61,412 nt of DNA, filler included, from Hausera hauseri (GCA_046269625.1; 11 parts of 11 records of this genome joined end to end with filler, not necessarily neighbours in it); one strand, 5' to 3'; positions 6,476 to 58,699 are shown, numbered from the whole stretch's first letter. Notes: a model not told the origin generated them from the letters alone. Translations and numbers: made by a program.

Positions 6476-7406
6476 TGGAGGTATTTTGAGTTCTATTCTC
6501 GTAGCCTCGTTCTTTAGTATTATCATACAATCTCTTATTATTTCGGTTCCTATTACGATTGTCACCATCATTATTCCGTTCAAATCTATCGCTCTGTTTT
6601 GCATATCTATCTAATTCCATTTCTAAATTTTGCGCTAACTGTAATGCAGTCTCAAAATTGTCTGATCGGGCTAAGATTAATTGCTTAACTAAATCTCTGG
6701 ACCATATTTTGTTTATTAACTGCGTCATCATCATGATGCCTAAATCTGGTGGGCTAGACTTTTCTGCAGCTTCAATTCTGCATCTGTCTTTACTTTAGCC
6801 GCGTTAGCTATCCTTAATGTATTTACATAACTATTAGCAAGTTTCTTTAATGCAAATGCGAAATGAGTAACCGATTTACCCTTTTGTTGGGTTGTATTCT
6901 GAAAAGCCATAAGCTTCTGTTGTGGCGTAACTCTCGGCAATAGCTTTTGGTTTAGGGCTCCTACTACAGAGGACCATGATTTCTTTTCATCGTTTGTAAG
7001 TTCACTATAGGCATGTGCAGCCAGATTATATCAAGTATAGAGACAATCGCTTAATCATAACTTCGGGCGCAAGGCCGGCACTTTCTGCATGCAATTTGTA
7101 AGTCCTCAGAAAATCATTTAACCCATCCGAGTCTCCGTCGTATGAGGGTAAATTTAACGAGTCGAGCGTGAATATATCAAGTATATGAGCTACTGCTGAG
7201 TTTTCTGTTGCCATTCTTATTCTATTTTGTCTGTCTATTTTAATTCTAGGAGGAGCTTTAAATTCTTTAACAGAGGTTAATTCAGTATCAGATAAACAGT
7301 GCTTATCGATTATCTTATCCTCGATGTAAAGCTTATTTCGAGTTTCTCTTTGATTACGTTCTTCTATGCCGTTCACTAATAAGTTTTGATATGAGTCAAC
7401 TATCAA
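6476..7406 (-). pseudogene. gag: Ty3/Gypsy family-1 gag (capsid-like domain followed by an Arg/Asn-rich tail)
   Basis: LPSYDGDSDGLNDFLRTYKLHAE..KRLSLYL..QQKGKSVTHFAFALKKLA is a retrotransposon-gag motif set. It lies directly downstream of the LTR and PBS and is homologous to 47757-48650. Confidence 0.85.
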
Positions 7407-7550
7407 TATTTGCTCTCAATTCAATTTTTAGTTAATTTCCCTCTAACCACTTATAATCCCACGTTTAAACTTTTAACTTATATCGTATAACAATTCGCCT
7501 GTATGTCTTTACTTGGCTCTCAAGAGTAATGTATAGCGATGCACAATCTG

Positions 7551-7567
7551 TTCTGCTAGGGTCGCCA
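7551..7567 (-). promoter_or_regulatory. Primer-binding site TGGCGACCCTAGCAGAA (possibly complementary to a tRNA-Arg)
   Basis: A TGG-initiated motif immediately after the LTR and upstream of gag. The tRNA identity is tentative. Confidence 0.7.
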
Positions 7568-7569
7568 AA

Positions 7570-8276
7570 TATTTTACAGTTGGGTGGTCCTTACCGTCTC
7601 CCACTATAACAATAGTTTATTTCAAGTTAAATTGCTTTTCAGCAGGTTAGGATTACCCGTTATTGAGTAATCTGCTTGTGCCTTAATAAATTTAGATAAT
7701 TTATGCTGTACTGCTGGTACTTCGTGCGGTTTAAATGCTTGTATTAGTTTATAAAATTTCAACTTAACTATGTGATTTTAAGTATAATTTACCCTTATGG
7801 TAGTCAAATCGTCCTTAAGAGATGATGAAAAACTATATAGGGATTTTAATAAACAATTTTAAAATAACCTTTATTCGATACACAGATTATCACAATAATT
7901 TCTCTAAACAAGAACAGTTCAAAATGATAGCGTAAGTAACAAGTCTTTGTCTTGGAATTTAGTTGTCCGACTTTAAGTCGTACACTGATTTCTGAATTCT
8001 AGTGGTTGGCGTACTGCTTATATATATTAGTAGCTTCAGTTCTATTTACATGTTTATAATACTATTCAAACAATTAAATTGAATTTTTCTATGTTTTAAT
8101 GTGTTTTCACTCATTTCTTCCATTACCAAATAGTTAGTACATATTTTGGTAATCCGACAATTCCATTATTAATATTTACAATCTAAATTCTTCGGAAATC
8201 TAATATTTACAATTACTACTTAAGTAAACAATTCGAGTCTTCGATTTCTTGATTGTTTACAATCCATTATGTTACA
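7570..8276 (-). repeat. Family-1 LTR (~700 bp)
   Basis: Begins TGTAAC at 8276 right after a polypurine tract and ends just before the PBS. Contains a TATA-like TATATATAA (~8018-8026) and a downstream AATAAA (7870-7875) on the minus strand. The end near 7570 lacks the canonical CA. Confidence 0.75.
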
Positions 8277-8288
8277 TCTCTCCTCCCT
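8277..8288 (-). promoter_or_regulatory. Polypurine tract AGGGAGGAGAGA
   Basis: Purine run abutting the TG start of the LTR. Confidence 0.8.
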
Positions 8289-8508
8289 GAGCGGTATCCT
8301 CGGAGGAGCCTATTGCGTCAGAAGAGGTGGCGCTTGACGTTCTCGGTCATCTTAACTGATTCATTCTTTCTGGTAGATATGAGGGTAAATTTCTTCGATC
8401 TCCATTGGTTATGGGGTTTATTTCCAAATTGTAGCTGTGATAAGGCTTGATCCGAACAATTCATGTGTAACTTCCATCACAGTAATATTTTAGTTCGGTG
8501 GCCTCTGC

Positions 8509-8643
8509 TCAAAATACTGGACATGTTGCTTTTCCATTGTCGAGTGTCCATTTTTCCATGCAATCTCGGCAGTATTTATGGCGGCAATTGTGGTTATCTA
8601 ATACCACATATCCTTGCCTCAAATTTGCGTCGCACACAGGGCA
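8509..8643 (-). pseudogene. C3HC4 RING finger at the 3' end of the family-1 accessory region (not in the ORF track)
   Basis: Manual translation gives CPVCDANLRQGYVVLDNHNCRHKYCRDCMEKWTLDNGKATCPVF*A. Seven of eight Zn ligands are intact, and TTT-TGA is one substitution per codon from TGT-CGA (CPVCRA). Confidence 0.85.
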
Positions 8644-10710
8644 TTCGCTATCTTTTTTGTTCCAATCATCTCTGTCTAAGTCGAGGTTTTATAACGGTTA
8701 AGTATAATTCAGTCCCATCTCTTTCTCGAATAGATACCTCGATCGGTATTCCATATCCATCGTCTCCTCTACCGTAGTTCGTGGCCAGAATCCTTATATT
8801 GCGACCGTCTTGAACTAACCTATACGATTGTAGATGTTCATCCTTTTCTGCCTCTGTTGGGGTTTTTTCGAACTGTAGAACTGGCAAGTCTAATTTGCAT
8901 TTCTTTTTATAAGTCATTTCAAACATCAGTTTAACCGGTAAGGCTGCTACTCGAAATTCTAATCCATAATCAATAGCTTCTAAGCCTCGTCCGCTTATTC
9001 TAAACGTGCTAAATTGGTATTGATGCCCTTCGTTACAATCCCATTGCTTGTTCTTTATTTTGTAGTAAACTTCTCCGTCGACCAGATGAATAAATATATC
9101 TTCCACTTGGGCAGTTCTATTCTGTATTAGTTCCTTAAGATTATACGATTTGGCTTGATTGTTACCGCGCATCGCGTATATCAGAATTGTGCGACTCCTT
9201 TAGGTGGTCCCTTTTAAGTCGTTGGGTATTTCATTTACTTTTCGATATTCGACATATGCTTCTGTCCGTAGTGCGTCATTTATTCTTAGGTATATGGCTT
9301 TAGATTTGAGTATAAAAACTGTTCCATATGTTTGTAAGAAGTCGCCGATTCTAGGTCGGCTGCTCGCACTTACCATTCTGAAAGAAAATGCAAAATAAGG
9401 GTCAATCCTAAAACAAAGTATTGTTCGAAATTTGAATCCATTCTTTGTTTGATAGTGGAATAACCCTATCTATAGTTTTTTCTATTTTAGCGGTAGTCGT
9501 AGTCTCATCCTTTATTTTCTCATAAATGAGTGGTTTCGTTACGACAATCTCGTTTAAGGTTCCTATTGTGAATACTCTACCTTGTTTATTCTCTGCACCC
9601 ATTTGTATTATATAGTCTGTTTTAGGTTTCAATCTGATACATTTGATTCGGTAGTTGCCTTTTGACAGTGACACCTTTTGATTATCGTGTATTGTTTGGC
9701 AGCTTATTTCTACATTGTAGTTAAGTGTTTCCTCCACAATGAACGTTATTTCGCGCTGTTGTGCCCAATATTTTATAGGGATTATTTCTAGATTCTGCTA
9801 AGACGATTTATTCGTTTGAATGATTCTGATGAGTGCAGTAGTAGTAGATTTTGTTTTTGTATTCGTCGTCGTTTCAAGTGAATTCGGCTTGATTGAATTT
9901 CTAAATCGGTACCTTCCTAGATAAATACTCGACTGGTTTGGTTTGACATCATATAAGTCTAACTGAATTCTATATTTATATTTTTGGGGTAACTTGCAAC
10001 ATCTTTTCGGTTGCTCGACGTCGATTTGACAGTACTGTTGGTTATGAGCTGGTATGTTCTCCTTCAGGAATCAGACTGAGATCACTCGACCGTTAATCAA
10101 TCGTACTTCTGTGTTTATTTGAACACAATTGTCCTTTGGATTTTCTGTTATACTTTCGATATTTTCTTCCAGCATCCGCTTTACTGAATCAAAGGACTGG
10201 AGTATTTCGTTGCGTTTTATCCCATGATGCTTGTTCCAAGCAGGGATAACTAATTGAAATTGTGGTTCTATTTCGTAGATTCTAGATGATTTCCGTGAAT
10301 ACATTCGGTAGGTAATGTTATAAGTATGTCCAAAATCCGCAGTGCAACATTGCGTATGCTTTCAGGCTCGAAATCACAATTTATTGTTTTTTTTGTCATT
10401 ATATCATCTAGGGCAATTTGAAGTCTTTCACCATTGTGGTGTGGTCTCTGTACTTTAAATCCAACGCATGTGGAGTTTGGCAAATAATAATGAATTTTGA
10501 CTGATTGTAACAACGTAATTCCTTCTTGCCTTGGGATTTCTTCTAATGTTGGTATCCTTTCCGTTTTATTAACCTCTGGTTTAAATCCATTTTTCTGCGC
10601 TCCGTATACATTTTTAATGTAGATCCGTCGTGCCACCATTTAGTTTGTTCTCTCGGAATACAAGAAGCAATTATCGATAATGCTAAAACTATCTGCACAT
10701 ACGATATGGG
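8644..10710 (-). pseudogene. Family-1 post-integrase accessory protein: signal-peptide-like segment, Cys-containing beta-rich/FN3-like domains, Thr-rich linkers
   Basis: Hydrophobic YVQIVLALSIIASC (10640-10701) follows the integrase. FN3-type motif CIRLKPKTDYIIQMGAENKQG at 9579-9641. TTTNTKTKSTTT and ETTTT linkers. Homologous segments occur in contigs C and J. Confidence 0.7.
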
Positions 10711-12277
10711 TCTGGTGATAATCGACGAGGTCTTGTTTTCTCGCGGTCTTAGATTGTAATGTTTAGCTGGCCTTATAACGGTTTTAACTACTCTTTGAAT
10801 CAATACCACTTCCTCTTTTCCATTTTTATTGATATAAACCGTGATTGGTGTTGTACGGATGATTTCATATGGTCCTCTTCCAGTAGGTGTTAATTTCAAG
10901 GATGTACCTTTCTTCGCGACTGGGTAATGTAGGCAAACCCCATTTCCCTTTTCCAGATCATGAGGCTTAGTCTTTTTATCGTATTGTTTTTTAAATTGTT
11001 CCTGGTATTCGAGTGATAATGTTTTCGCAACCTCCCAACACTTTTGTAATCTTGTCTGTAAAACTTCGGCAAAGTTTTGCTCTAAATCCTTGAGATTTTT
11101 TTCATACGGCGTCATGCCTAGATCGGCAGGTAAGATTGCCTCTCGTCCATACATCATAAAGAACGGTGTGAACCCTGTTGCTGGATGTGGAGTCGTACTA
11201 ATCGCGAATTGTGTTCCATCTGGGAATTCATCCCAATCCTTTTGATTTTTTGCCACTACTGTTGATAGTATCCGAATAACTGTTGCGTTCATTCGCTCAA
11301 CCATTCCATCACATTGGGGATGGCACGCGGTAGTGGTTAGACGTTCAATTTCAAATATTATGATAATCTTTTTTAATAGTTCGCTTGTGAAGTTCTTTCC
11401 TCTATCAGTTAGAATTTGTTCTGGTGGTCCATATCTGCAGATGATTTTTCTTACCACTACGTCGGCTAAAGTTTCTGCCTTTTGGTGCCACTAGTTCTAC
11501 GAAGTGCGTTAGTCGGTCCACACATGTCAGGATATACCTGTTATTTTATGAGTTTTAGGCAAGAGTCATACTATATCCATAGATATGGCTGACATGGGCT
11601 TATCTGGTACATTTATGGGTTTTAATTCTGCTACGTAGCCTTTCGTCTTCTTTTGTTTTGTCGCGCAAACTTTGCACGCTCCTACCCAATTCTTTACATC
11701 AATATAAATACTTGTCCAGTAGTATTTATTCAATATTCTTTCCAATGTCTTCTTCCAGGATATATGTCCGGCTATATATGAATCATGTTCGGCCATGAGT
11801 ACTTCGGTGCGCAACTCTTTTGGAATAACTATTAATCTTCGTCTCTTCCGTTCGTAATACAGGATATTATCCTGGTTTTCGGCGTGATATTTATGTCCGT
11901 GTTTTTGCAGGTGCTTCTTCAGTTGCCGTCCCTTGGGTATATCGCCGTTTTGTGCCAACTTAACAATTTGATGATTAACTTTATCTTGGGCTTGCTCGGC
12001 CGTAATTCTAATTGTCTTATCTATTATTAGAGTTTGTTGTCGTTCGATTAGTTGTTCGAGTTGCGGCTTTTTTGCTATAGTAATTGTACTCGATTTTGTC
12101 TTAAGCCTTGATAGTGCGTCAGCGTCGACGTGTTTATTTCACGGTTTGTATTGGAATTCAATGTTATATCGTGAGATCTATTCAATCCAACGGTTTAATC
12201 TACATGTCGGATTATTAGCTCGTCCTTTCAATGTCGTAACTGCCTTGTGGTCGGTTACTATAATAATCCTTTGTCCA
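10711..12277 (-). pseudogene. pol: Family-1 pol, 3' part (end of RNase H, HHCC zinc finger, DDE integrase, GPY motif)
   Basis: EHDSYIAGH..CKVC, SMDIV, ILTDRGKNFTS, HPQCDGMVERMN, GRGPYEI. Confidence 0.95.
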
Positions 12278-12377: not shown

Positions 12378-13590
12378 GAGTTGTAATTTCGTCACCTGTG
12401 TTTTCATATATGCGTGACTCCGCGCGGATTTCGTCTAATGTGCGCAATGTAACTGTTTCATTTTGTTTATTTTCCACATATACGTGTATTATGTAATCGG
12501 ATTGTGGTTTTAACGAATTACATTCTGTCTGTTGAGTGTTTTTAAATAACGTTACCTTTTTACTGTATGTTGTTCGGCAGCTTATGTGTATGTCATAATT
12601 TAATTTTTCTTGCGCGAAGAACACAATTTTGAATGTGTGCCAAAAATTTAATGGGTATGTTTTCTAATTCTCTTTTAGACGCACTTTCCGAAATAACAGG
12701 TATGACAGTATTACTAACTCGGGTAGTCGGCTTTTCGGTTGTCGCCTCTACTGTAATTTGCCATATTTTATTTGGGTAATATGTTTGCAAATGTTTGCTC
12801 GGTTTATTTGGTCTTACTTCGTATAAGTCGAACTTTATTTTGAATCCTTGATTTACTGGTAGCTTGCAACATGGGTGCTGTACACTGGCGTGAATAGAGC
12901 AGTAATTTTTCCTCGGGTTTCGCCCGTTTACCGCTTCGAAGACAATACTAATTTCTAGACTGTCGTTCAACCCTGATCGAGCATCTACTTGGATACATTG
13001 TTTTTCTCTATTTACCGAAATTTGCTTTATATTTTCGTCCAGTAACTTTACCACTGGATTGGTGGATTGTGGGATTTCTATGGGCTCTTTTCCGAAACGT
13101 CCAGGCCAAGGGGGAATGACCAACTGAAGTTTTGGGTTTACTTCTAGATAGTATTCTGACGAATCAGTTAAGTATAATCGATAAGTGAGAATGTAAACAT
13201 GTTCGTACTCTACGTCGCAACACTGGGTATAATTTCCGGGTTCAAAACCACAGTTTTTCATCACTTTTGTTGTCACGTCATACAGAACAATCTGAAATTT
13301 TCCAAAATCGTGGTGTGGTTTCCAAGTTTTAAACCCTACGCACGTGGAGTCTATCGAAAAGTAATTAAGCGTTATTGACTGTAATAATTTAGTGTCTTCT
13401 TGCTTTTGTATCTCCTCGGTTGTTGGCCTCCTTTTCGCTATATTGTTCTTCTCCTTTAATCCGTTTTTTCTTATTCCGTATACGTCTCATAACGTAGATT
13501 CATCGTCCCACCATTGAGTTCGTATTCTTGTAATATAAGAAGCAAACAAAGATAGTGCTAAAATAATTTGGACATATGAGATCGGCCTAG
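12378..13590 (-). pseudogene. Family-1 post-integrase accessory protein, second copy
   Basis: YVQIILALSLFASY..QWWDDESTL follows the integrase; Cys-rich domains; FN3-type motif CNSLKPQSDYIIHVYVENKQN at 12460-12522. Confidence 0.7.
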
Positions 13591-16500
13591 CTATTTTTGA
13601 GGAAGATTTTACCTGTCGTTGACGTAAATTGTAACGTTTATTGGGTCGTATATCTGTCTTGACGACTCTCTGTACTGACACGATTTCTTCTTTTCCATTT
13701 TTATTAATGTACACCGTCGTTGGTGTGATTTTAGTAATTTCATACGGTCCTCGGCCACTTCGGGTCAATTTCAACGAGGTCCCTTTTCCGGCTGCTGGAT
13801 AATGTACATAAACCCAATTTCCTTCCTTTAAATCATGTGACTTTGCCCTTTTGTCGTATTGTTTTTTAAATTGCTCTTGGTATTCTTGCTATAATTATTC
13901 GGCAATTTTCCAACATTTTCGTAATCGCGCCTGCATCACTTCTGCAAAATTCTGTTCTAGATCTTGTATATGGTGTCATTCCTAGGTCTGTAGGCAACAC
14001 AGCTTCATGCCCATAGATCATAAATAATGGTGTAAATCCCTTTGCTAGGTACGGTGTGGTATTCATGACAAATTGAGTCCCTTCTACAAATTCGTCCCAA
14101 TCCTTTTGGTCCTTAGCCACTACTGTGGATAGTGTACGTATGACGGTTTCGTTCATTCGTTCAACCATCCCATTACATTGACGATGATACGCAGTAGTAT
14201 TTAGTTGTTCAATTTCAAATATTTTGGTGATCTTCTCAAATAGTTCACTCGTAAAATTTCTTCCACGGTCGGTTAATATTTGATATGGGGTCCAATATCT
14301 GCAGATGATTTTTCTTACTACAGACTCTGCCAAGGTTTCTGCCTTTTGGTCAATTAACGCTATCAACTTGATAAAATGAGTTAGTCGGTCAATTCAAGTC
14401 AAGATATATTTATTATTTTTGAGAGTCGTAGGTAACGGTGCTACAATGTCCATTGACATGGCTTGCATAGGCCTGTCTGGTACGGCGATTGGTTTTAGTT
14501 CTGCAATGTAGTTCTTTGTCCTTTTTTGTTTTGTTCCACATATTTCACAAGCATTTACCCAACGTTTCACATCAATATAGATACTGGGCCAGAAATATTT
14601 ATTCAAATTTCTTTTTAACGTCTTTTTCCATGACATATGTCCTGCTAAGTATGAATTATGTTCCGTCATAAAGACTTCGGTCCTTAAACTTTTAGGAGTA
14701 ACTAATAATTTTCTCCCTTTTCGCTCATAGTACAAAACGTCTTAACTGCTCTTATTCAAGATACAGTATTTGTATCCATGTCTGTGTAAGTGCTTCTTTA
14801 GTTGTCGTCCTCTTGGCATAATATCTTTTTTAGCAAATTCTATAATCTGCTGGATAACTTTATCTTTCCTTTGTTCTACCGTAATTTTGATGGCTTTATC
14901 TGTTGTCAATGTACGTTGGCGGTCTATTAATTCTTCGAGTTGAGTCCTCTTCATTATGGTGATTGCACTCGTCTTAGTTCTTAACCTAGATAGCGCGTCG
15001 TCATCTACATGCTTATTTTCCGGTTTATAGCGAAATTCAATATTGTATCTAGAGATTTCTTCGATCCATCGATTAAACCTGCATGTCAGATTATTTGTCC
15101 GTCCTTTTAGAGTCGTGACGGCTTTTAGATCAGTGACAATTATAATTTTGTGCCCGTACACGTAAACGCTGAAGTGTCGCAGGGTTTCTTTTTCGGCTAG
15201 AGTTTCTAATTCGGTAACGGAATAATTTTTCTCGACCTTTCTCAGAGAGCGCCCTCCGTAAGCAATTGGATGTTCTAATTCTTCGTCTTCTCTCTTCTGT
15301 GCTAATTCATATCCAATGCTTTCCTTGCCGGCATCCGTCTTGATTATAAAGGGTAAATTGAAGTCCGGGTATAGTAGGACTGGTTCACTTGTTAGTATCT
15401 TCTTCATTTCGTCGAAAGCTTTCTGTTCGACATCTGTCCACCTCCATCTAATTCTTTTTTAGAGTAGACGATATAAGGGTGCATTTATTTTCGAGTTGTC
15501 TGGCACATAAGTGGCATAATATCCACAGAGACCTAACCAATGTCTAAACTCTTTCTGATTTTGGAGCTCCATGCAATCTGATATTTCGTTCAATATTGAC
15601 TTATCTGGTTTTGATCCTCCTTCCCCAACTATATGACCAAGGCAGGACACTGCATTTTGGGCCTATTTACACTTTTTTGGATTTAATTTCAATCCGGCTT
15701 GTTCGAGTCGCCTCAGTGTATGCTCGATGTCCTTTAGATTTTCTTCCTCTGTTCTTCATGCTATCATCACGTCGTCTAAATACGCAAAGGCATGATCTAG
15801 TCCCATCAACATTTTGTTTATCATTCTAGTAAAGATAGCTGGTCCAGTGGTAATGCCAAACGTTATTACATTAAACTCGTAGACACCATCGTGTGTTTTG
15901 AATGCAGTTTTTTTATATCGGTCTTCGTCCTCAATTTCTACTTGCCAATATCCGGATTGTAAATACAGCGTGGTAAACCATTTTGCCCCTGAGAGCCTGT
16001 CTAGAGCTTTTTTTACCGATGGCAATGGAAAAGAATCCTTCATGATGAGATTGTTTAACGCCATGTAGTCAATGCAGAATCAATGTTTTGTAGTACCCTT
16101 CTTTTTGACCATAAGGATCGGTGAGTACCAAGATCTATAACTGGGTTTAATTATGTCGGCCTTAATTATTTGCTCGACTTCCTTTGTTATCTCGGGCCTT
16201 AGAGAATGCGGTGGAGGATACCACTTCGGCATTTTTTGGTCTTCCAGATCTATCGCTTCATTTGAACCAGGCTTTTTGTTAAGCGGAATAGTTAATTTTT
16301 ATGCCTTTGCCCTGCCGATATTTTCTTCATCCTTAGCAATAAGTGACTTATAACGGTATAATAATTCATAGAATCTACAATAAGATTCGGGGGAAAACCT
16401 AGTTTCAACATGCGGTGGAAATTCAGCATATTTGTAAGGTTTTTTTTCAATAGTTATGGTTGACACTCTATATGTATCTCCCAATGTTGTATAAGCATGG

Positions 16501-17100
16501 AGCTTCACGGGGGTCGGCTCGCTATTGGCTATTCTAATTGGTACTCGACCAGAGCGCACCCTGGTCAGTATGTTACTCAGCGTTATATTTGGATCTAATG
16601 TCTCCTTTGGTTTGAAGTATATCGGTTGATCCTTATCCTGTTGGACTTCAGCATAAATTATTATTGCAGCTCTTAGTGGAATATTTTCGTCCACTGGTAT
16701 TCATACTTCTCCGAACTTCCTATCTTTGGCGTTTTTACGCCCTTATTTGGTCTGATTTCTATTCATTTTCCTGTCTGTAAGTCAATTGGTAGTCTTTTTA
16801 GTAGAACACATCCTAGAACTACGTCGTTTGTCAATTGTTCCATAACTGCGAATTTATGGTGGAAAAATTGTCCACCTATTTATACTTCTGGGTTCCATTT
16901 AAATATTGGTTTTGACACCTGACAGAAGGTTCCTGTGCTTCCGGAATCTTTTACTGACGGTGAATAGAACTGTCTTCTTAGCCTTACAGGGATTGAATTA
17001 TTTTTAACGTACGACATTTCCAAACCTGTATCAATCAAGGCATATACTTCCCAATACTCAATAATAATTTTGGCGAAGGGCCTACCTTCTATACTGTTCC
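13591..17100 (-). pseudogene. pol: Family-1 pol: protease, RT, RNase H, integrase (frameshifted)
   Basis: ALIDTG (17024-17032), LQSGYWQV..TFGITTGPAIF..YLDD, FIIKTDA..YSVTELETLA, HHCC, LTDRG..MVERMN, GRGPYEI; Gypsy domain order. Confidence 0.95.
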
Positions 17101-17358
17101 GAAACAGTTTGATGCAATCTTCGGGTGTTTTGTTGCCGATATTTTGTGCCCATTAATTCGGATTTCTGGAGAGGGTACCGTGTTTTTTGCTATTTGGCTC
17201 AATTCTCCGTTTGGATATAGATCATTATTTTCAACGTTTTCTTCTTCCACCTCACAAGTGTTAATTAATGGTTCTCGATTGTTAGTATATGGTTCCATAT
17301 TCCGGAAGGTCTTAAATTTTGGATTGTCCCAGACAGGCGATTTTGTTTCTATACTTCA

Positions 17359-18476
17359 CTATTTTCTCGGAAAGTGCAATATTCTGGGGTCGTTGAGAGG
17401 CTGTCGATAACACATTTTCCTAAGGACTCCGTAACGTTTTGTTCCTTTATAAGGATCTCCTAAACTAATTGTCCTTTTATAGATTTCTGTCTGATATAAA
17501 CTCATTGATTGTTTGTCACAGTTTTCGTAGACTGGAGCGGTAGGGGGTAGCATAGGCAATGGTGCCTTAACGACAGAATACATCTTATGTCTGTTTGTTC
17601 CTGAAAGTACTTCTCCTCCCTTAGGCTCGTCATCCTCTGAATTATTTCTTCGCGTATTAGGTTTTGTAAATTTCCGCTTGTACAATAACATAGGCCTTCC
17701 TTTTCGTTTACGATTATAATAACCGACATGGCGTTCTACGTCCGAATTCCATATATTTTCTTCGTATGCTTTTAAGAACTTTCCAAAAGGTGTTATGATT
17801 GCAGTCAGTATTTTGCATGAAAATCCGGGCAATGTAAATATTTCATACCCATTAATTACTGCTTGGATGACTGCCTTAATCATTTGTATCAGAAAATATA
17901 TCGCTAAGAATCCGGATGCGGCTTGTCCAAAAATCAAAAATCTTCCCAAAATTTTGTAGAGTATTTTTGTAATTACTCGCTAGCAATGGTTTACTCCAAG
18001 CAAGGATTCCTATTTAGCTTGATATCGAGTATCGTGTACTACGGAGGCCATAACTCGGTTTAATTCGTGTGTTCGCTGTCGTAAAAAAGCGAGGTATTAT
18101 CTGAAGGCTTCGATTTCCTTAAGCCTATATATGCCTTTTGACGAGGTGTCTTGAAATTTGTCGTCTGTAATTCCTTTTGAAAGATTTGTTCCTGTTAATT
18201 TATTTGGAGCAGCAGTAATATTTCCATTTGGCAAACTGGCCCAATCTGTTTCACTACGTCTATCATGGGTTCTCCTAAGCTTGCTTTATAATCCTTAAGG
18301 ATTGTTTGTTCAGTTGCATTGTCTAATAGCACTCTAGTGAGTGGCATAGCTAACTTTGGAATATTCTGGTAAATCACGGGAAGTTCCTGCATGCAGCGTT
18401 TTTCTTCAACGTTGATTGGTGCATCTCTTTTCTCACATTCGTAAGTCAATAGTACTTCACCGGTAACTCGACCAAA
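17359..18476 (-). pseudogene. env: Chuvirus-like class III fusion glycoprotein (C-terminal half, TM region and basic cytoplasmic tail) upstream of the protease
   Basis: GRVTGEVLLTYEC..CMQELPVIYQNIPKLAMPLTRVLL, KGIYRLKEIEAFR.YLAF and GRFLIFGQAASGFLAIYFLIQMIKAVIQAVINGYEIFTLPGFSCKILTAI follow the motif series I recall for chuvirus glycoproteins (AGEVxHIIKC, CYxELPV, GIYxxEDL..HIMFP, FGxxSAG..IHGYALH.VYGWS). Confidence 0.8.
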
Positions 18477-45830: not shown

Positions 45831-45969
45831 AATGCAGGGTGCCCGAGTTTCCCCTCGAAGCGCGCAATATCGGGATGTTATCTGGTATAGATATTTGGGA
45901 TATTTGATGAAAGATTGGAATTCTGTCAGAAATTTGATAAAAATGCGAATAATTTGTAGTTGGTTTCAT

Positions 45970-46495
45970 TAATCCACATCGCATAATACCAGTAATTTCC
46001 TTAAGACCATCTACATTATTTTCTAAGCATTTTGCATCTCCAAAGTCACCAAGTTTTGCGCGGCACATATTGGTATCCTCGACCTTTACTAAAGATATAT
46101 TATCGGGTTTGATATCACTATGAACAATTTGACTGTCATGTGAATATACAAAAGCCTTTAAAACCTGTTCTTTCCATTGTCTAATGATAAAATCTTGGAT
46201 ATCTCGTATAGTTATTTCGGGTAGCAAACCACTATCGCAGTGTTCGGTAAATATTCGAACCTGACTGAGACTGATATCAACGCCATAATATTTGATAAAT
46301 GACGAATGATTTAATATACAGAGGATGTCGTATTCGAATGAGTTATGAGTATAAGGTTTAATGATAACAACTTCTTTCATGGCTATTATTTTCATCGTAT
46401 CCAAGTTGCATACTTTAAAAACCTTACCGTATCGACCTTGTCCGATAAAACTTGTCTTAACCCATTGAAACGGTACTCGTTTAACGTAATGTAAT
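45970..46495 (-). pseudogene. MAP3K4: MAP3K4/MEKK4-like Ser/Thr kinase fragment (subdomains I-VII), intronless
   Basis: KRVPFQWVKTSFIGQGRYGKV..IIAMKEV..YYGVDI..IFTEHCDSG..IVHSDIKPDNI..KLGDFG..LENN closely follows MEKK4. HRD is changed to HSD and the fragment stops after DFG. Confidence 0.75.
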
Positions 46496-46561
46496 TTATC
46501 CGTTTCGCTACTAGAACAGTACCAGTTTTGAACAGTACCCGTCAGCTTATGAACAAGACAT

Positions 46562-46671
46562 GTTCTCTTTCTTTTATCCTTTATAGTTCTAACTTTGCCA
46601 CGGGGGGGGTGATGTTGTGATCGCGACGACTGTTGTCCTCCGGCCCATTCGGTTGGGCACGGCCGGGTTTT
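46562..46671 (+). repeat. 3' leader, PPT and LTR start of another family-2 copy (inverted relative to 40519-40630)
   Basis: AACTTTGCCACGGGGGGGG-TGATG..CGGCCCATTCGGTTGGGCACGGCCGGGTTTT matches the reverse complement of 40519-40600. Confidence 0.85.
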
Positions 46672-46771: not shown

Positions 46772-47680
46772 CGAAATCACAAAGAGAGGCTTCACGAAAT
46801 TTTGGAATTTCATAAATCTTCCATTAACAGAATTTTGAAAGAAAGCATTTTAAAGCCATTCAAATTTACAACTGATGAACACCTGAAAGATGATGACAAA
46901 CCCGAGTGCACTCAGTTTTGCCAACTTGTAATTAAAAATAACTTACGAAAAAGACGGAGTTATAAAAATTGTGTTACACTTGAATGGTTTGAAAATTCAC
47001 CACAATTGTTTTTATTGTTGCGAACAAAACGAATTTAGGGAAAACAGTTCATGAAAAATGAAATCATAGTCAAATAACACTCTGGGCAATCGACCAAATA
47101 ATTCAAGAAACAATGAATGGAAAAGATATGCAGACATTTTGAGTGAAGTTGTTATACCTACCATGACATAAATCAGATATATTCATCATTATTTTCAACA
47201 AGACGGTGTCCCTCCGCACTTTTCTTTGATATTCAGAGAGCTATTGCTTCAAATTTACATAATCGTTGGATAGGAAGAATGGGATCAATACAGTGGCCAC
47301 TGCGTAGTCCCGATTTGTCTATAAACGACTTTTGGTTATGGTGGTATATGCGCGATAAAGTTTATGAATATCCCCAAGCTACAACAATTGAGGAACTAAT
47401 TCAACGCATGGAAAAAAATTTGCTACTATTAACCTGAGGATGGTGAAAAATGCCTTCAAAAGCTTTGTTAAAAGGTGTAAGTTATACATCGCCTATAACG
47501 GTAATCATTTTGAAAAATATTTATAGCCATAATCACCATCAATTATTAATTAAATAAAGATATTATTGGATGGAGAAGTCTTCCCAAATTACCACCGAAA
47601 TAAATTAAAATAACAAGCCTTCTTAATTATCAATCATAAATTATGACAATAAAAATTGCGGGATCAGCTGGATCACCCTG
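46772..47680 (+). mobile_element. Tc1/mariner-superfamily transposon of DD41D (rosa-like) type, 3' part
   Basis: FQQDGVPPH..RWIGRMGSIQWPLRSPDLSINDFWLW. The spacing between the last two catalytic Asp codons is 122 nt (41 codons minus 1 nt). Ends ..CACCCTG followed by TA (47681-47682). Confidence 0.88.
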
Positions 47681-47756
47681 TACATTAACGTAATATTTCT
47701 GCACGTAGTTCATTTTCACAATTCTATCTCGTTATTTGAGTTGTTTAAAACGCCAT

Positions 47757-48650
47757 AATCTGTCGGCATACGATGATGATCCGGATAGATTAAATGAATT
47801 CTTGAGAACGTACAAAATGCACGCGGAAGGTGCCAGTCTTACCCCTGAAGTAATGATCAAACGTTTGTCGTTATATTTGAAGAATTTGGCCGCCGATGCT
47901 TATAGCGAGCTTACTAATGATGAGAAATCTTGGTCCTCCCTGGTAGGAGCAGTGAACCGAAAATTATTGCTGACAGTAACGCCATAACAGAAACTTATGG
48001 CATTTCAGAATAGGGTACAACAGAAGGGTAAATCAGTAACCCAGTTTGCATTTGCATTGAAGAAACTCGCTAATAGTTATATAAGCACATTGAGAATAGC
48101 TAATGTAGCCAAAGCTAAAACCGACGCTGAACGAGAGCTTGCAGAGAAAGCATCCCCACCAGATTTGGACGTCATGATGACGGCAAATTGGTTCACGGAA
48201 TCTGGTCCCGAGATTTAGTAAAACAGTTGATTTTGGCCAGGCCCGAAAATTTTGAGGGCTTTGCAGCTGGCCCAAACTTGAAAATGGCACTTGATAGATA
48301 TGCCAGCCGCAATGATAGAAATGGCAGAAATCATGACAGAAACGACCGTAGTCGTAACGATAATCGCGGAAGGGGCGATAGGCGATTGAATGGTAACAGA
48401 AATTATGAGAATAGAAATAGTAACGACTGCAGGAACAGTAGGAACAATAGTTATGCCAATGATAGAAATATGAATAAGTCGAATCCCAGTATGGATACAA
48501 ATCGATAGAGCCATAAAGGCTCTAATTACCAGAACCGTTATAAAGATAATCGAAATAGTGACAGTCGACGGAATATAAGTAGTACACAAGGTTCGTCGAA
48601 CCAATACAATAGGGATTTAAACAGATCAAAGTCGCCTGTAAATGAAGATG
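47757..48650 (+). pseudogene. gag: Family-1 gag, second copy, with an Arg/Asn/Asp-rich C-terminus
   Basis: Close protein match to 6476-7160 (LNEFLRTYKMHAE, QQKGKSVTQFAFALKKLANSY, WSRDLVKQLILARPENFE). Confidence 0.88.
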
Positions 48651-49079
48651 GTTGACAGAGTGGGTCGAAATAGAAATTTAGTTTGCTTTACCTTAAGTTT
48701 GCTTTAGTTAAGCTCAGACACTATTAACTGCGTTAGAAACTAACCATAGGTTGAAAAGAGTAGTTCGTAATTTAGAACACATGACGAATGGAATCAGATG
48801 CGCAATGATAAATCGGCTTAAAGAGAAACCGGTTAATCATCGAAGCAACATTGATTTAGAAATATTGGGTATAGACCACCACTTTAATGGAAATGATAAA
48901 AATTGCTTTCGCAGTACCAAAACGTTATACAAACTTAGAGGATCGTATTAAAATTGAAAATAAAAAGAAATCACAGATCTACAGTTTAAGGAATCGGATT
49001 ATGTTTGTAAATAATGAAGAGACAAGATACAAAATAAAGACTCGTATTTTGAAATTTGACGAATAAACGGATGAATTTA

Positions 49080-51281
49080 ATTATGATTGCCGGATTATGA
49101 ACTTTAAGAGGTCCCGATGATGAATCAAAAGACGCTTATAAAACGCAAGAAAAGGCGATATTGGCAAAGCCCGTAATAGCTAATCAACTAACGGAATGGT
49201 CCGAGTTAATATCGAAACTAACTAATCCAGTGGAAAGTCGTAGGGAGGATTTTCAGGAAAGCGAGCCTACAGTTAAGAAACAACTAGAGAAAAGCGCACG
49301 GAATCTAATACAATGAGAGCAGAAGTAGATATCCGGACTCAATTCGATGCATTACGGCAAATGAATTTCATAAAAAAGAAACGAGAACTGGCGATATTGG
49401 AAGAGATATAAAATGATCGAAGAAACAAACTTTGTAGAAAAGCGAAATATGATTTGCAACTTCTACCCAAGATTAAGAAACATCCGTCTAGAAGGAATCC
49501 AGCATTTAAGCGCTAAATCTATTGATAAAATCACAATTCGCGATCTCGAAACTTTGAATATTTGTCCGGAACATAGAACAGCTATAGAGGAAGCAATGAG
49601 ATTCCTACATAAACCACAGGAATATATGGCCGTGGCAGATCAAAATTGCCATACTGAGTTAACAAAAATAAGGAACGACACTCATCTCGGTTTTGAAGAA
49701 GGTAAGTTCGTGAAGAAATTGCTCGATGCGACAGACCCCGATTCAAGAATTCTTAATGAGATGTACGAGTTAACACTAATGGTAGAAATGACAGAAATTA
49801 ACAATGAAAAGATGAGATAATTGATGTCTCAAATACGACAGGCCGAAGAAACGTGCATTAGAACTAAACAAAGAGTAATAAGATTAGACGAACTAACAAA
49901 AGAGCTCGAAATTTATCGGAACAAATATGCTTTTACTGAGTCAGAAATTAATAGGAAGATAGAATTTGTACAAAGATGGCAAAGGGATGTAATTATCGAA
50001 CTGACTATCATCAAAGAGGATTCATTCCTGCTAACAAACTGGACAAACTGTTAAAACTTATCCAGTATGCTTGTGGAAACGGAATAGGTTTCCGGACCAC
50101 ACAGATGAAATAGAGCCGAGGTTAAAGGAAATTCTAGAAAACGTACAAAGAATGAGTACAGCGATAGTAGACTATGGACTTTCAGAAATCGGAAACGATC
50201 CAGAATGGGATGCCTATTTAGATGCGACAAATGTTGAAAATCCAATGACCAGTACGGATAAATGAACCAGAAATATGTCCGCGAGGTAGGAGGTTCAATG
50301 TGGAGATACTCTTGGACTCAGTGCTAACTGAGAGGGATTTAATCGAATTAATTAATGTAAACATAACTGAAAATAAGTTGAGACAGCTTATTCCGACTCT
50401 AACTGAATTATCCAGTAAGAACACGGTTTACAGCACAGTACCAAAACTACATATGCATATGTGAAGGATCTGAGAGTGGTTGATAAACAATGGTGAAATA
50501 ATTGAGTTAAGCTATAGATTCTACTTTAGAGGTAGGATACTGGACGACTTAGAAAAATTAATAGACGTCGGGATTATACCCGATGAAACAAACCGGATAG
50601 TGGCCGTAGTAGCCAACGAGCAGACTAAGGAAGAAACCACGCGTAAGGCTAAGACCAAACAGTGCGTAGGATAAATTATGGAAGTCCGAGACGCTGCAAT
50701 GTACTTCGAGTATTTGCAGACGGAAAAGGATAGGGAACAATATGATAAGAACTTAGTGTCATTAAGCAGAATAATAGCAACTACCCCTAGACATAAACAT
50801 CCGGTCGGCAAACCCAAGACATGAGAAGAGATCGATTATAATGGATAATTGATTAGAGAACTGCGACAGATGTCCATTCCGACTTTCAGCGCAGAGAATG
50901 AAGAATTGAACGAATTAATGAAGAATTTAATACGCATCGTAAATCACTCAAACCTTGAAGGCGACACGTTAGATGATAATGAGAAAGCGATATTTAACGT
51001 CGCTAGAACAATGAGAAACTCCCGCTTCAAATTATCGAAAAGTAATTTGACCGATGAATTGGCGATTGAAAAGATCATGGTGGAAAACACGATAGAAGAA
51101 CTAAGAAAAATTTTACTGTATTTAGCTATTAGGACAAACTCTATTCGGGAGAATGAAATTAATGGAGCTGAGCTTGGCACGGAAGGCGGCTAGAAAACTA
51201 CCCCAAGAAGTATGTTGGTCAAAATTTCTCGATAAAGAAGATAAACGACCCAATAATAGTGGCCGATTTGAAGACATGCTA
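49080..51281 (+). pseudogene. Long decayed ORF of unknown function downstream of the family-1 gag
   Basis: A chain of same-strand ORF fragments (49413-49820, 49821-50054, 50071-50265, 50480-50674, 50849-51193), Glu/Ile/Leu-rich, with no protease or RT motifs. Confidence 0.55.
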
Positions 51282-51381: not shown

Positions 51382-51739
51382 CAGCACTGCATATTTTCTC
51401 AAGGTTCGAAATCACATTTTTCTTTTCTTTTGTGGTTAGGTCAAATAAAACAATTTGGAACCTTCCGAAATCATGGTGTGGCCTCCAAGCCTTAAATCCA
51501 ACGCATACTGCGTTTGGCGAGTAATAGTGAATTGTCATCGATTGTAACAATTTATTATCTTCTTGTCTTTGAATTTCTTCGACTGTTGGCTTCTTTTCCG
51601 ATTTAACTGCTTCCGATTTTAATCCACTCTTCCGAATTCCGTATATATCTCCTAACGTAGATTCGTCATGCCACCATTGCGCTTGTATTCTTGGGATGTA
51701 TGAGGCAATTAGTGATAATGCTAAAACTATCTGAACATA
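51382..51739 (-). CDS. Start of the family-1 accessory domain, in one open frame with the integrase C-terminus
   Basis: The ORF starting at 51931 reads GRGPYEV..RPISYVQIVLALSLIASYIPRIQA-QWWHDESTL..CVGFKAWRPHH without a stop. Confidence 0.8.
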
Positions 51740-54700
51740 TGAAATTGGTCTAGTATCTATTGAGGAAGTTTTCATATCACGTTGGCGTAAATTATAACGT
51801 TTGCTGGGTCGTATTTCTGTCTTCACAAACCTTTGTATTGACACAACTTCTTCTTTTCCATTCTTGTTGATATACACTGTGGTTGGCGTGACTCTGGTGA
51901 CTTCATACGGTCCTCTACCCGTGCGAGTCAATTTCAGTGAGGTACCTTTTTTGGCTACTGGATAATGTACATAAACCCAATTCCCTTGTTCTATATCGTG
52001 CGGTTTCGCTTTCTTATCATATTGCTTTTTAAACTGTTCTTGATATTATTGGGATAATTCTTTGGCGATTTCCCAACACTTTTGTAATCGCGTTTGTAGC
52101 ACTTCTGCGAAATTCTGTTCTAAATTTTCGGAATTAACTGTGTATGGCATCATTCCTAAATCTGTAGGTAACACAGCTTCACGTCCATACATCATAAAAA
52201 TGGCGTAAATCCTGTCGCTGGATGATGTGTAGTATTAATTGCGAATTGGGTTCCTTCTAAAAATTCATACCAATCCTTTTGGTCCTTTGCTACTACTGTT
52301 GATAATATGCGTATGACGGTAGCATTCATCCGTTGGGCCATTCCATTACACTGAGGATGATATGCAGTAGTTGTTAATCTCTCGATTTCAAATATTTTGG
52401 TGATTTTCTCGAATAATTCACCGGTAAAATGTCTTCCTCTATCTGTGAGTATCTGGTCTGGGGGTCCATATCAACAAATGATTCTTCTTACCACGGCTTC
52501 TGCTAAGGTTTCGGACTTCTGATCTATCAATGCGACCAATTCGACAAAATGAGTTAGGCGATCAATGCATGTTAAGATATACTTATTGTTCTTGTGAGTC
52601 GTAGGAAGGGGTCCTACGATATCCATCGACATGGCTTGAATAGGCCTGTCGGGTACATCAACTGGTTTTAATTCGGCGATGTAATTTCTCGTCTTCTTTT
52701 CTTTAGTTGCACATACTTCACACGCGTTTATCCAATTTCTTACATCGATATAGATACTAGGCCAAAAGTATATGTTCATTATTCTTTCTAATGTTTTCTT
52801 CCAAGACATATGTCCGACTAAGTATGAATCATGTTCTGACATCAGTACTTCAGTTCGTAAACTTTTGGGAATAACTATCAGCTCCTTTCCTTTCCGTTCG
52901 TAATATAAAATGTCTCCTTTATTTCCGTCATTCAGGACGCAGTATTTGTGTCCGTGTCTGTGTAAATGTTTCTTTAATTGTCGTCCTCTTGGTATGACAT
53001 CCTTTTTAGCAAATTCTATAATCTGCTGGATGACTTTATCTTTTCTTTGTTCTGTTGAAATTTTGATTACCCTATCTATTGTTAACACGCATTGGCGGTC
53101 TATTATTATTTCAAGTTGACTTTTCTTCATTACAGTGATTGCGCTTGTTTTAGTCTTTAATCTCGATAGGGCATCAGCGTCTACATGTTTGTTTCCTGGC
53201 TTATACTGGAATTCGATATTGTATCTGGAGATCTCTTCGATCCATCTGTTTAGTCGGCACGTTGGGTTATTTGCTCGACCCTTTAAAGTTGTAACGGCCT
53301 TGTGGTCAGTGACGATTATAATTTTCTGCCCGTAAACATAAATGTTGAAATGACGCAGTGCTTCTTTTACGGCTAGAGTTTCCAGTTCGGTAACGGAATA
53401 ATTTTTCTCGGCCTTCTTCAAAGAACGTCCTCCGTAAGCGATTGGGTGTTCCAATTATTTATCTTCCTTTTTCTGCGCTAACTCATAATCAATGCCTTCC
53501 TTACTGGCGTCTGCCTTGATTATAAATGGTAAGCTAAAATCTGGATATCTCAAAACAGGTTCGCTTGTTAATATCTTCTTCATCTCACTAAAAGCTTTCT
53601 GCTCAACGTCTGTCCATTTCCATTTAATCCCTTTTTTAAGCAGACTATATAAAGATGCATTAATTTTTTAATTATCTGGTACGTAGGTTGCGTAATATCC
53701 GCATAATCCTAGCCAGTGTCTTAATTCTTTCTGATTTTGTGGCTCTATGCAATTCGATATTTTGTTCAATAACGACTTATCCGGTTTCGAGCCTCCTTCT
53801 CCAACTATATGACCTAGGTAGGATACGGCGTTTTGAGCCCATTTGCATTTCTTCGGATTTAACTTCAATCCGGCTTGTTCCAATCTCATCAGTATGTGTT
53901 CAATATCTTTTAAGTGTTCTTCCTCCGTTCTCGATGCTATCATCACATTATTTAAATATGCAAAGGCATGATACAGTCCCATTAACATTTTGTTCATCAT
54001 TCTTGTGAATATGGCTGGTCCGGTAGTAATACCAAACGGCATAACATTAAACTCGTAAACACCATCGTGAGTTTTAAATGCTGCCTTATAACGGTCTTCG
54101 TCCGCTATTTTCACTTTCCAATATCCGGATTGTAAGTCCAGAGTGGTAAACCATTTCGCTCCTGAGATTCTGTCTAAGGCCTCTTTTACTGAGGGCAATG
54201 GGAAGGAATCCTTCATCATAAAATTATTTAGAGCTCTGTAATAGAAACAAAATCGGTGCTTCGTAGTGTCTTTCTTTTTAACCATAAGAATAGGTGAGTA
54301 ACAGAATCTGTAACTGGGCATAATTATTTCTGCCTTAAGCATTCGTTCAACTTCTTTCGTTATTTCGGGCCTTAACGAATGTGGTGCAGGATACCATTTT
54401 GGCATCTTCTGATCCTCCAGATCTATCTCTTCATTTGAACCAGGCTTTTTCTTGAGCGGAATAGTCAGTTTTAGCGCTTTTCCTCTACAGATATCTTCTT
54501 CATCCTTAGCAATAATCGGTTTATAGCGGCATAATAATTCGTAAAATCGACAGTAAGATTTCGGGGAGAACTTAGTTTCAACATAAGGCGGAAATTCGGC
54601 GTATTTATAAAGTTTCTCTTCGATAGTTATCGACGATATTCTATATGTGTCTACTATAGTAGTATAAGCATAGAGTTTGATAGGAGTTGGTACATTGTTC

Positions 54701-55300
54701 GCTATTCCAATCGGTACACGACCGGAGTGTACTCTCGTAAGTATGTTACTAAGTGTACGTTTCCTTTGGTTCGAAGTATACTGGCTGATCGTCATCCTGC
54801 TGAATTTGTGCGTAAACTATTATCTCCGTTCTTAGTGGGATATTCTCGTCTACTGGTATCCACACTTCCTTTCTATCCTTAGAGTTTTTTACGCCCTTTT
54901 TTGATCTAATCTCAGTTAATTTTCCTGTTTGTAAGTCAATCGCCACCTTTGGTAATCTTTTCAGTAGATCGCATCCTAGAACCACGTCATCGGTTAATTG
55001 TTTTATGATTGCAAATTTATGTCGAAATGTTTGCCCAACTAATTGGACTTCTGGATTCCATTTAAACATTGGTTTTGACATTTGACCAAAGGCTTCTGTA
55101 CTTCCTAGATCTTTCGCAGATGGAGGGTATAGTTATCCTCTTAGCGTCTGAGGTATCGAATCATTTTGATGTACGACATCTCGGAACCCGTATCAATTAA
55201 AGCATAAACTTTCCAATCCTCAATAATGATTTTGGCGAAAGGTCTTCCTTTGATCACTGTTCCAAAACAGTTTGATGCTATATTCAAACGTTTAGTCATT
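51740..55300 (-). pseudogene. pol: Family-1 pol, third copy (PR, RT, RH, IN)
   Basis: ALIDTG (55186-55194), TLDLQSGYW, MPFGITTGPAIF, YLNN (mutated YLDD), TDHK..HVDADALSR, HHCC, SMDIVGPLP. Confidence 0.95.
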
Positions 55301-55489
55301 GATATTTTGTGTCCGTTTATTCGTGCTTCTGCGGCGGAAACTATGTTTTCCGACAACTGTCTTAATTCTTAGTTTGAATATAATTCATTGTTTTCTACAT
55401 GCAGTTCTTCCATTTCATGAGTACTGACTAGCGGCTCGATTGTTGGTATGTAGTTCAGTATGTTGGAAGGTTTTAAATCTTGGGGTGTC

Positions 55490-57097
55490 TCAAACCGTTG
55501 AACTAGTTTCGATATTTTTAGGTTCTCTCGGTGAATATAACATCTTGGGACCATCTGCGGATTGTTGATAGCACATTTTTCGTAGAATTCCGTAACGTTT
55601 CGTTCCTTCGTAAAGGTCTTCTACATTAATTGTTCTTTTATAAATTTGTGTCTGATATAAGCTCATGTACCGTTTGTCGCAATCGTCGTAGATTGGAGCG
55701 GTAGGAAGTAACATGGGCAATGGCGCTTTAACGACAGAGTACATCTTATGTCTATTAATCCATAAAAATGCTTCTCCTCCCTTAGGCTCGTCATCATATG
55801 AGTTATTCTTTCGAGTATTGGGTTTTGTAAATTTTCGTTTCCGTAGGAATATAGGCCTTCCTCTTTGTTTACGATTATAATAGCCAACATGGCGTTTTAC
55901 GTTCGATTTCCATCTATTTTCTTCGTATGCTTTCAAAAATTTTCCAAAGGCCTTATGATTGCAGCCAGTATTTTACATTAAAATCCGGTTAGTGTAAATA
56001 TTTCGTATCCGTTTATTACTGCTTGGATGACTGCCTTAATCATTTGTATCAGAAAATATATCGCTAAAAATCTTAATGCGGCTTGTCCAAAAATTAAAAA
56101 TCTTCCCAGATTTTGTAGATTATTTCTGTTGTTACTTTCGGATAGTGGTTTATGCCAAGTAATGATTCCCATTTAGCCTGATATGTGATGTTGTCTACTA
56201 CAAAGACAATTGCTTGGTTTAATTCATGTGTCCGTTGTCGTGGAAAAGCGAGAAATTGCCTAAAGGTCTCGATTTCTTTCGGCCGGTATATACCTTTCGA
56301 GGAGGTATCTTGAAATTTATCGTCTATAATTCCTTTTGCAAGATTCGTCCCTGTTAGCTTGTTGGGAGCGGCAGTGATACTTCCATTATGCAAACTAACC
56401 CAGTCTGTTTCGCTACGTCTAAACATCGGCTCTCCTAAGCCATTTTAGTCCTCATGATTTCTGTATCCAATTTGCAATCATTCATTATCATTTTGTGATA
56501 TAATTCCGTTAGTCTTTTATAGTAGAAGTAATCGTATCTATTTATCAGGTATTCGTCAATCCGAACATCCTACGTTTCCAATTTGTAAGTTTTTGCGTTT
56601 ATGTCTGTTTCGGCTACAAAGAACTCTTCGTAGTCCGTGGCGAACATTACTACATCGCAGTGAGTCATCATCTCTTTCTTAATAAATTTTAGTCCGTGTA
56701 AGTCCGAGATTAATATAGTAGGGGTAAGGTGTTCCGATACATCTTCGCGTGTTCCTAAATTAGCCTCCGATTTGTCTACCTATCGTTTCCGGTAGTTTCA
56801 TTAAACTTTAACTCTTTAATTTTGATAAAGTTAAAGCTTCTTCCAGACGAAGGTTCCCATATTATGACCGAGCTTCTAAAAGCACAGGTTCCGTCTTGTA
56901 AATGACATTTCTGATTCTCAGTATATAACTTATTGACACTATGGAACATTACCTTCTGTGATCGCATTTCTGATTTGTAGAAATCCACAACTACCACGTT
57001 TGGTTCTAATCCTTTACCGGTATCGTATTCTGCTCCATTGCAATGTCCGGTACGCATATCCAGCCGTCCAGTTACTAATTTTTATGCTGTGATTATC
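55490..57097 (-). pseudogene. env: Chuvirus-like glycoprotein, second copy (central ectodomain to tail, with an internal deletion)
   Basis: TGRLDMRTGHCNGAEY..NVVV, CHLQDGTC..IIWEP, HCDVVMFATDYEEFFV, DEYLINRYDY..ELYHKMIMNDCKLD, KGIYRPKEIETFRQFLAFP, TM FLIFGQAALRFLAIYFLIQMIK. Confidence 0.8.
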
Positions 57098-58657: not shown

Positions 58658-58699
58658 GATCACGAACCGGTCTTTTGTTGTTTATCAAAGTCGAAGCCA

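Follow-up and report, generated by a model that had tools for sequence, protein, structure and literature searches.

The window analysed here is a stretch of 61,412 nucleotides (nt) from Hausera hauseri (GCA_046269625.1) made of 11 contigs and N-spacers, and four of these contigs (B, C, I, and J) carry pieces that likely belong to one large retrovirus-like element. We consider it fairly probable that the pieces represent one Ty3/gypsy lineage with elements about 13.5-14 kb long and with a main open reading frame (ORF) that encodes a single polyprotein running from Gag through an X region, envelope (Env), protease (PR), reverse transcriptase (RT), RNase H (RH), and integrase (IN) to a signal peptide and a fibronectin type III (FN3)-like protein. 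A separate ORF with a nuclease fragment and a RING finger would follow, and the polyprotein would enter the endoplasmic reticulum (ER) twice. Ty3/gypsy elements with an envelope serve as models of the way in which retroviruses became infectious.

Four broken pieces, likely of one Ty3/gypsy lineage

The pieces occupy 6476-12277 (contig B, minus strand), 12378-18476 (C, minus), 46772-51281 (I, plus), and 51382-57097 (J, minus); contigs D-H are outside the element although they lie inside the interval 6476..57097. By blastn, C and J are 77% identical across 5092 nt, B is 72% identical to J and 70% to C (each over about 1950 nt of the RH-IN part), and B and I are 75% identical over 545 nt of gag. 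The overlaps form the chain I-(gag)-B-(IN)-C/J, which is left open at ORFX on one side and at env on the other. Contig B reads RH/IN, signal-peptide-like stretch, ectodomain, accessory ORF, RING, polypurine tract (PPT), segment resembling a long terminal repeat (LTR), primer-binding site (PBS), and gag. C and J both read env, PR, RT, RH, IN, signal peptide, and ectodomain, and on I gag is followed by another 2.6 kb or so of broken coding sequence. Added together, the spans that do not overlap reach at least 13,044 nt, with the LTR counted twice and the unseen gap excluded. The original prediction, made from the sequence alone, had joined IN to gag through B, this gag to more than 2.5 kb of further sequence through I, and env to pol and the accessory part through C and J, for a summed length of roughly 13-14 kb or more; the domain matches, the gag identity, and the spans all agree with it. 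Its description of the size as far above a typical Gypsy element holds in part: the element is large for Ty3/gypsy, but it does no more than reach the upper end of the sizes published for GAG-ENV-POL elements and stays far below the Burro elements discussed in the last section.

In both C and J, env lies directly upstream of pol. On J it covers 55500-57097 (minus strand), is broken, and lacks its 5' end; PF24664 (E 2e-9) and tblastn matches to the open-frame relatives described below assign it to the glycoprotein B (gB)/chuvirus (Monjiviricetes) type, and hydropathy predicts a transmembrane segment (TM) near 56070-56026, followed by a cytoplasmic tail. C retains the C-terminal part (17360-18476, minus; PF24664 E 2e-17), with a predicted TM at 17910-17866 and a tail. 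PR-RT-RH-IN follow at 51746-55250 on J (minus), with stops, frameshifts, and an RT active-site motif without its two aspartates, and at 13583-17150 on C (minus), also broken, while B holds the end of RH and a broken IN at 10741-12277 (minus). A single PR was seen per window copy. The PR-RT-RH-IN order with an H2C2 integrase in C and J is a trait of Ty3/gypsy elements (Metaviridae), as is the LTR of B, preceded by a PPT and followed by a PBS. In a quick RT-RH-IN tree of 45 rows, for which 43 of 71 candidates were kept by length and identity, C and J together are sister to six env-containing polyproteins (SH-like approximate likelihood-ratio test, 96).

The single LTR-like segment of B spans 7572-8276 (minus strand, about 705 nt, starting TGTAAC), between a PPT at 8277-8288 (minus) and a PBS at 7550-7567 (minus). 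The PBS starts TGG and, as we presume, resembles a tRNA-Arg PBS; the window contains no tRNA gene. A search of sequencing runs gave one match, the contigs of run X1, and listed no RNA run. Contig records of X1 (6308 aligned on B and 5073 on I) pile up at both ends of the segment with loose ends at 7582 and 8333, which is the pattern expected for LTR borders; X1 is possibly the source of the window and not independent of it, and its depth is summed contig depth, not copy number. The window shows no second LTR copy, paired LTRs, or target-site duplication, and no LTR pair was found in the relatives L001 and L002 either. Because B has one LTR between a 3' end and gag, it represents either a tandem pair or an assembly collapse. 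About 57 nt before the PPT (8277-8333) are common to many X1 contigs, and the sequence upstream then differs (loose end 8333, 46 records, agreement 0.52); sister families may carry cargo other than the RING ORF.

Gag was found on two contigs. On B (6476-7253, minus strand) the capsid region is broken and cut by the contig end, and it is matched by tblastn with the relative P0080 (E 3e-7) and by a Gag profile of four relatives (E 4e-12). On I (47748-48650, plus strand), capsid and an R/D/N-rich region are present, likewise broken (profile E 6e-27). This profile matches I and B only. Before gag, I 46772-47700 has no LTR or PBS; it shows low X1 depth and, by eye, a Tc1/mariner-like fragment at 47147-47434.

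Stops and frameshifts occur in all four window copies. Codon positions were evaluated in four of six comparisons, those of the ectodomain and gag being out of frame and excluded. The differences between C and J at the three positions are 0.13/0.08/0.42 in pol (747 codons) and 0.13/0.17/0.39 in env (95 codons). This concentration at third positions suggests that the subfamilies split under selection while active and decayed later. The original prediction took the clearly diverged copies as a sign of an old, diversified family; most of the divergence reflects a split of active subfamilies, with decay on top. The four pieces are likely broken parts of different subfamilies of one abundant Ty3/gypsy lineage.

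Open-frame relatives and the joint between ORFX and env

Natural relatives with open frames were recovered using env. The env tail of C as a query gave P0066 and the env region six more long proteins, and env precedes PR in 7/7 matches of the env-region search. A metagenome scan added L001 and L002 (2/49 pattern matches), and scans of genome contigs with P0066 and of viral contigs with P0080 gave no confirmed match. P0080 is one ORF of 4029 amino acids (aa) that encodes Gag, CCHC, X, a signal-like stretch, Env (PF24664 E 9e-98), a TM, two PR, RT, RH, IN, a third PR, another signal-like stretch, an ectodomain, and a TM, the hydrophobic stretches lying at 1104 and 3548 and the last TM at 3956. 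It belongs to a cluster of 20; the 14 others listed, at 97.4-99.7% identity, lie on contigs of 14.6-18.4 kb. L002 repeats this layout in 3655 aa, with separate ORFs behind, one of them RNase T-like.

Other features of these proteins deserve mention. Two to four aspartic-protease-like domains per polyprotein are present in P0079, P0080, P0081, P0082, and L001, one of them behind IN in P0079-P0082, and C2H2 fingers lie between protease copies in three of P0079-P0082/L001. A second signal peptide-ectodomain-TM cassette sits between protease copies of L001 (about 4700-5400), and L002 apparently has two tandem helical plus ubiquitin-like domains (about 1600-2850). P0066 (HBK71150.1) is a full env-pol polyprotein filed as a protein of a Flavobacteriaceae metagenome-assembled genome, on a 9-kb contig; its DNA is probably of eukaryotic origin and was placed in a bacterial bin. 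Metagenome assemblies do contain elements of this kind, in this case under a bacterial label. P0065 and P0073 were rejected as WD40 false matches (2/8 proteins scanned), and for a BCL2-like domain noticed by eye before env in L001, Pfam, PDB, and a two-sequence profile gave no support.

Of special interest is ORFX on contig I (48650-51281, plus strand), the X region expected between Gag and Env. Its translation is broken and cut by the contig end, and many diverged X1 contigs cover the whole of it. It contains a remnant of a helical plus ubiquitin-like X domain (50339-50629, plus), detected with a profile of four relatives that includes no window sequence and matches I only (E 4.4e-6; 13.0 bits vs. 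at most 3.1 in 30 shuffles, with a similar result on repetition). The stretch between the two motifs of this remnant is shorter than in the relatives. The X domain of one relative folds with a predicted local distance difference test (pLDDT) value of 90 into a helical part and a ubiquitin fold, and PF11976 and PF00240 each match weakly in 2/4 relatives. For other parts of ORFX, a homologue search with 49374-49817 retained 0/161 candidates, and an Atlas search gave coiled-coil-like leads only (0.83). A SAM-like motif noticed by eye was unsupported (single-sequence fold pLDDT 38).

In 6/6 relatives measured, the Env signal peptide lies 216-393 aa after the ubiquitin-like motif. Contig I ends about 240 aa past this motif and J starts about 130-150 aa into Env, which would leave about 0.4-0.8 kb missing and lead to the estimated 13.5-14 kb, with the gap size taken from the relatives. 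One 860-nt X1 record extends about 450 nt beyond the end of I. By these comparisons, ORFX likely continues into env. The original prediction had presented this link as inferred and not observed; the joint is still unseen in this genome, and the open-frame relatives and the X homology support it. A direct junction of gag to protease, named beforehand as the contrary case, was found in no relative extending that far. The predicted order LTR-gag-ORFX-env-PR-RT-RH-IN-SP/FN3-RING-LTR (SP, signal peptide) is likewise supported by the one-frame relatives and the homology of ORFX to X, except that RING belongs to a separate accessory ORF and not to the SP/FN3 unit.

A predicted second membrane protein and a possible entry mechanism

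On J, a signal-peptide-like stretch and the start of the ectodomain (51382-51745, minus strand) are in the same open frame as the IN C-terminus (open stretch 52045-51383), and the main ORF is likely one polyprotein. C carries a signal peptide and an FN3-like ectodomain cut by the contig end (12378-13582, minus), and B a signal peptide (10707-10663), an FN3-like ectodomain, and a Thr-rich stalk (9400-10707, minus). Because a profile of the relatives' post-integrase ectodomain matches both C (E 2.4e-7) and B (domain E 0.001), we regard this unit as a trait of the lineage. A hydrophobic stretch and a TM are found behind IN in five of the six relatives reaching past it, P0082 being the exception. 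The top Atlas matches of the C ectodomain were mostly fn3 (0.80, a lead only), and a PDB sequence search with B 9411-9797 returned 0 matches.

Contig B then encodes a separate accessory ORF (8657-9370, minus strand), an RNase T/DEDD-like fragment homologous to an ORF that L001 and L002 carry downstream of their polyproteins (E 3.4e-5 against their profile; 13.3 bits vs. at most 5.0 in 20 shuffles). RNase_T is matched in these separate ORFs at E 1.4e-5 (L001) and 9e-4 (L002). Only the first part of the nuclease, without the acidic motif, is present in B, and a PDB sequence search with 8669-8899 gave chance-level matches only. A C3HC4 RING finger (8515-8643, minus; Pfam zf-C3HC4 E 9e-7) follows directly in another frame, in a region covered by diverged X1 contigs. 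No RING was detected in five scanned ORFs downstream of the L001/L002 polyproteins. Since the accessory ORF corresponds to the separate RNase T-like ORF of these relatives and the RING stands right behind it, the RING is not part of the FN3 protein.

We propose that the polyprotein would be threaded through the ER twice, by a pair of internal signal peptides and a pair of TMs. The first of these signal peptides, after X, would direct the Env ectodomain into the lumen, leaving Gag-X cytosolic and held at the membrane, and the Env TM would return the chain to the cytosol, making Pol an extension of the Env tail. Pol would then enter budding particles on this tail and not as Gag-Pol, and the element protease would free RT/RH and IN. 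The second signal peptide, behind IN, would bring the FN3-like modules to the luminal side, and a C-terminal TM, as seen in the relatives, would anchor them there as a second surface protein. This protein would most likely be the attachment partner of a class III fusogen, a role that we favor because the two would be made one-to-one. The ubiquitin-like domain and the RING may act on the host ubiquitin system. Enveloped particles would carry the element from cell to cell, and its integration would be that of an ordinary LTR element. The window copies themselves cannot run such a cycle, given the stops and frameshifts in all of them. Tentatively, we suggest that these parts form a two-protein entry machine, with a gB-type fusogen and an FN3 attachment protein cut by signal peptidase from one polyprotein, Pol riding on the Env tail, and the element's own ubiquitin-like domain and RING ligase; the plan would resemble that of enveloped RNA viruses on a gypsy backbone. 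For the way in which elements with gB-type envelopes find target cells, a second membrane protein that is conserved and part of the same chain offers a concrete candidate, and with the open frames of the P0080 cluster and L002, topology and processing can be tested without recourse to the broken copies.

A number of observations weigh against this reading. ORFX is not linked to env by any contig or read here, blastn found nothing common to I and either C or J, and gag is the sole overlap between I and B. The X match is short (13 bits) and its region was picked after a weak tblastn hint; ORFX is also longer before the ubiquitin-like domain than the X of P0080, and mostly without matches. A CCHC profile found no knuckle in B or I. 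The relatives are remote (about 35% in pol) and modular in build: the protease copy number varies, and L001 has the extra SP-FN3-TM cassette. In a shorter RH-IN tree, whose row winH was out of frame, B/C/J and the relatives form an unresolved fork. For the post-integrase protein, the C-terminal TM is not clear in B, Pfam fn3 matches C at E 0.024, under the cut-off, and the signal peptides are predicted by hydropathy only.

The main rival to an attachment role accepts the layout and places the FN3-like membrane protein on the host cell, where it would block re-entry, serve as a decoy or in adhesion, or recruit the RING ligase to membrane proteins of the host. There are class III fusogens that need no partner. 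The protein looks optional, as it is missing from P0082 and present as two cassettes in L001, it diverges faster than pol (no blastn match between B and C beyond 10344), and the RING ORF comes directly after it. It is nevertheless part of one chain with Env and Pol, and would be made at the same time and place and in the same amount; it is also kept in most relatives reaching past IN, plus L001 and L002. We judge a host-cell role to be rather unlikely, if somewhat less remote than the alternatives that follow.

Mixed sister lineages could also have produced the window, with I from a relative that has gag and X in common but is env-less or deleted, and B, C, and J from elements with a different X before env. 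The copies are just 70-77% alike, modules are gained and lost within the lineage, the ORFX-env joint is unobserved, and the assembly may have made B chimeric at its LTR. On the other side, every relative with the X domain and enough downstream sequence runs into env, an outcome that env-based searches favor, and the gag of I is 75% identical to the gag behind the LTR of B; we hold it to be improbable. That env was a passenger in an element copied only within cells, decaying already as the family spread, would fit the broken state of all window copies, but the env differences of C and J are biased to third positions and the relatives keep a full open env, and we give this explanation very little credence.

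Other window sequences and comparison with known elements

Three further groups of sequences were noted outside the element. Contig K has an open 564-aa stretch (58658-60352, plus strand) with a parvovirus NS1 domain (E 4e-8), followed at about 61060-61260 (plus) by a BIR domain (E 2e-18); judged by these domains, it is a densovirus-like insertion beside an inhibitor of apoptosis (IAP)-type domain. On contig H (40519-46671) there is a gypsy element distinct from the one above (41516-45233, minus); a protein-kinase fragment (45697-46671) lies upstream of its gag, and an inverted repeat of 108 nt (40519-40626/46564-46671, 82%) is present as well. Long uninterrupted FHIP-like frames (RAI16-like E 1e-35, DUF5917) lie upstream of a gag-like head on contigs A (1-3113, minus) and D (21061-21330), and this head is common to contigs A, D, and H.

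Errantiviruses of the GAG-ENV-POL type whose ENV is of the HSV (herpes simplex virus)/gB type are known from Nematoda, Bryozoa, and Platyhelminthes according to the main text of Chary and Hayashi (eLife, PMC13524379), and, in the 14 rows that give LTR coordinates among 30/55 matching rows of its supplementary file 1, they span 8.9-13.5 kb from one outer LTR end to the other. As far as the text of that study describes them, the window element resembles them in its Ty3/gypsy pol, a gB/chuvirus-type env before pol, and a similar size, the gB type being assigned here from the PF24664 match in C and J. Gag upstream of env, part of the GAG-ENV-POL definition, was not seen in this genome; it is seen in the relatives, and the X homology supports it. 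The published group was restricted to intact ORFs (PMC13524379, main text), unlike the broken window copies; P0080 and L002 do have intact ORFs. RING, fibronectin, and ubiquitin are not mentioned in the main text of PMC13524379, figures aside.

The planarian gypsy-like elements Burro/GYPSM1 exceed 30 kb, with an internal region of up to 25 kb and an ORF of 4873-5140 aa, as given in the text of Arkhipova and Yushenova (2019, PMC6431247). In that text, Env sits in frame with Gag before it and PR after it, Gag and Env are separated by a Ubi2/SUMO-like domain (PF11976), and a RING-type motif, accessory ORFs, and numerous copies are described as well. It likens the Burro env to gypsy Env and mononegavirus fusion proteins, whereas the window env matches PF24664, and a signal peptide-FN3-TM unit behind IN is not mentioned there for Burro. 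Shared with Burro/GYPSM1 are a RING motif, an accessory ORF, a high number of copies, and the ubiquitin-like domain between gag and env, a remnant of which persists in I. The relatives match Burro in having gag, env, and PR follow in this order within a single open frame; the window frames are broken. The Burro motifs MATH, BIR, BCL2, ankyrin, SMC, and dUTPase-like were absent from Pfam scans of B, C, I, J, and the relatives, and the window element, at least 13.0 kb with an LTR of about 0.7 kb, is far smaller than the more than 30 kb of Burro.

Nematodes harbor the NERV elements, reportedly described by Sacco et al. in 2022, which are said to have a continuous gag-env-pro-pol ORF and extra ORFs for a helicase or a small protein, not for FN3, ubiquitin-like, or RING domains. 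They form a nematode clade with the env/pol order flipped, as in the window element (as cited in the main text of PMC13524379). LTR elements of bdelloid rotifers carry a DEDDy exonuclease as ORF3 (Rodriguez et al., 2017, PMC5408684) and are similar in having a DEDD-family nuclease ORF downstream of pol; in the text of that article the bdelloid nuclease retains its catalytic residues and no RING is mentioned, whereas B has a fragment without the acidic motif before a RING. The Anakin BEL/Pao elements of mosquitoes carry a chuvirus glycoprotein, according to Dezordi et al. (2020, PMC7642597); the same glycoprotein family has been captured by an LTR element there, but on a BEL/Pao backbone, whereas the window pol is of Ty3/gypsy type and matched no Pao-specific family.

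We found no description in the literature of a conserved signal peptide and FN3-like membrane protein behind IN, although this absence from print is weakly tested; the figures and most supplements of PMC13524379 may show such domains. Published elements already have the gag-env-pol order, this size, RING motifs, and the ubiquitin-like domain. The element works like both the GAG-ENV-POL group and Burro: it differs from Burro in size and domains, and it fits the GAG-ENV-POL group in all but its broken copies and the inferred gag-env link.

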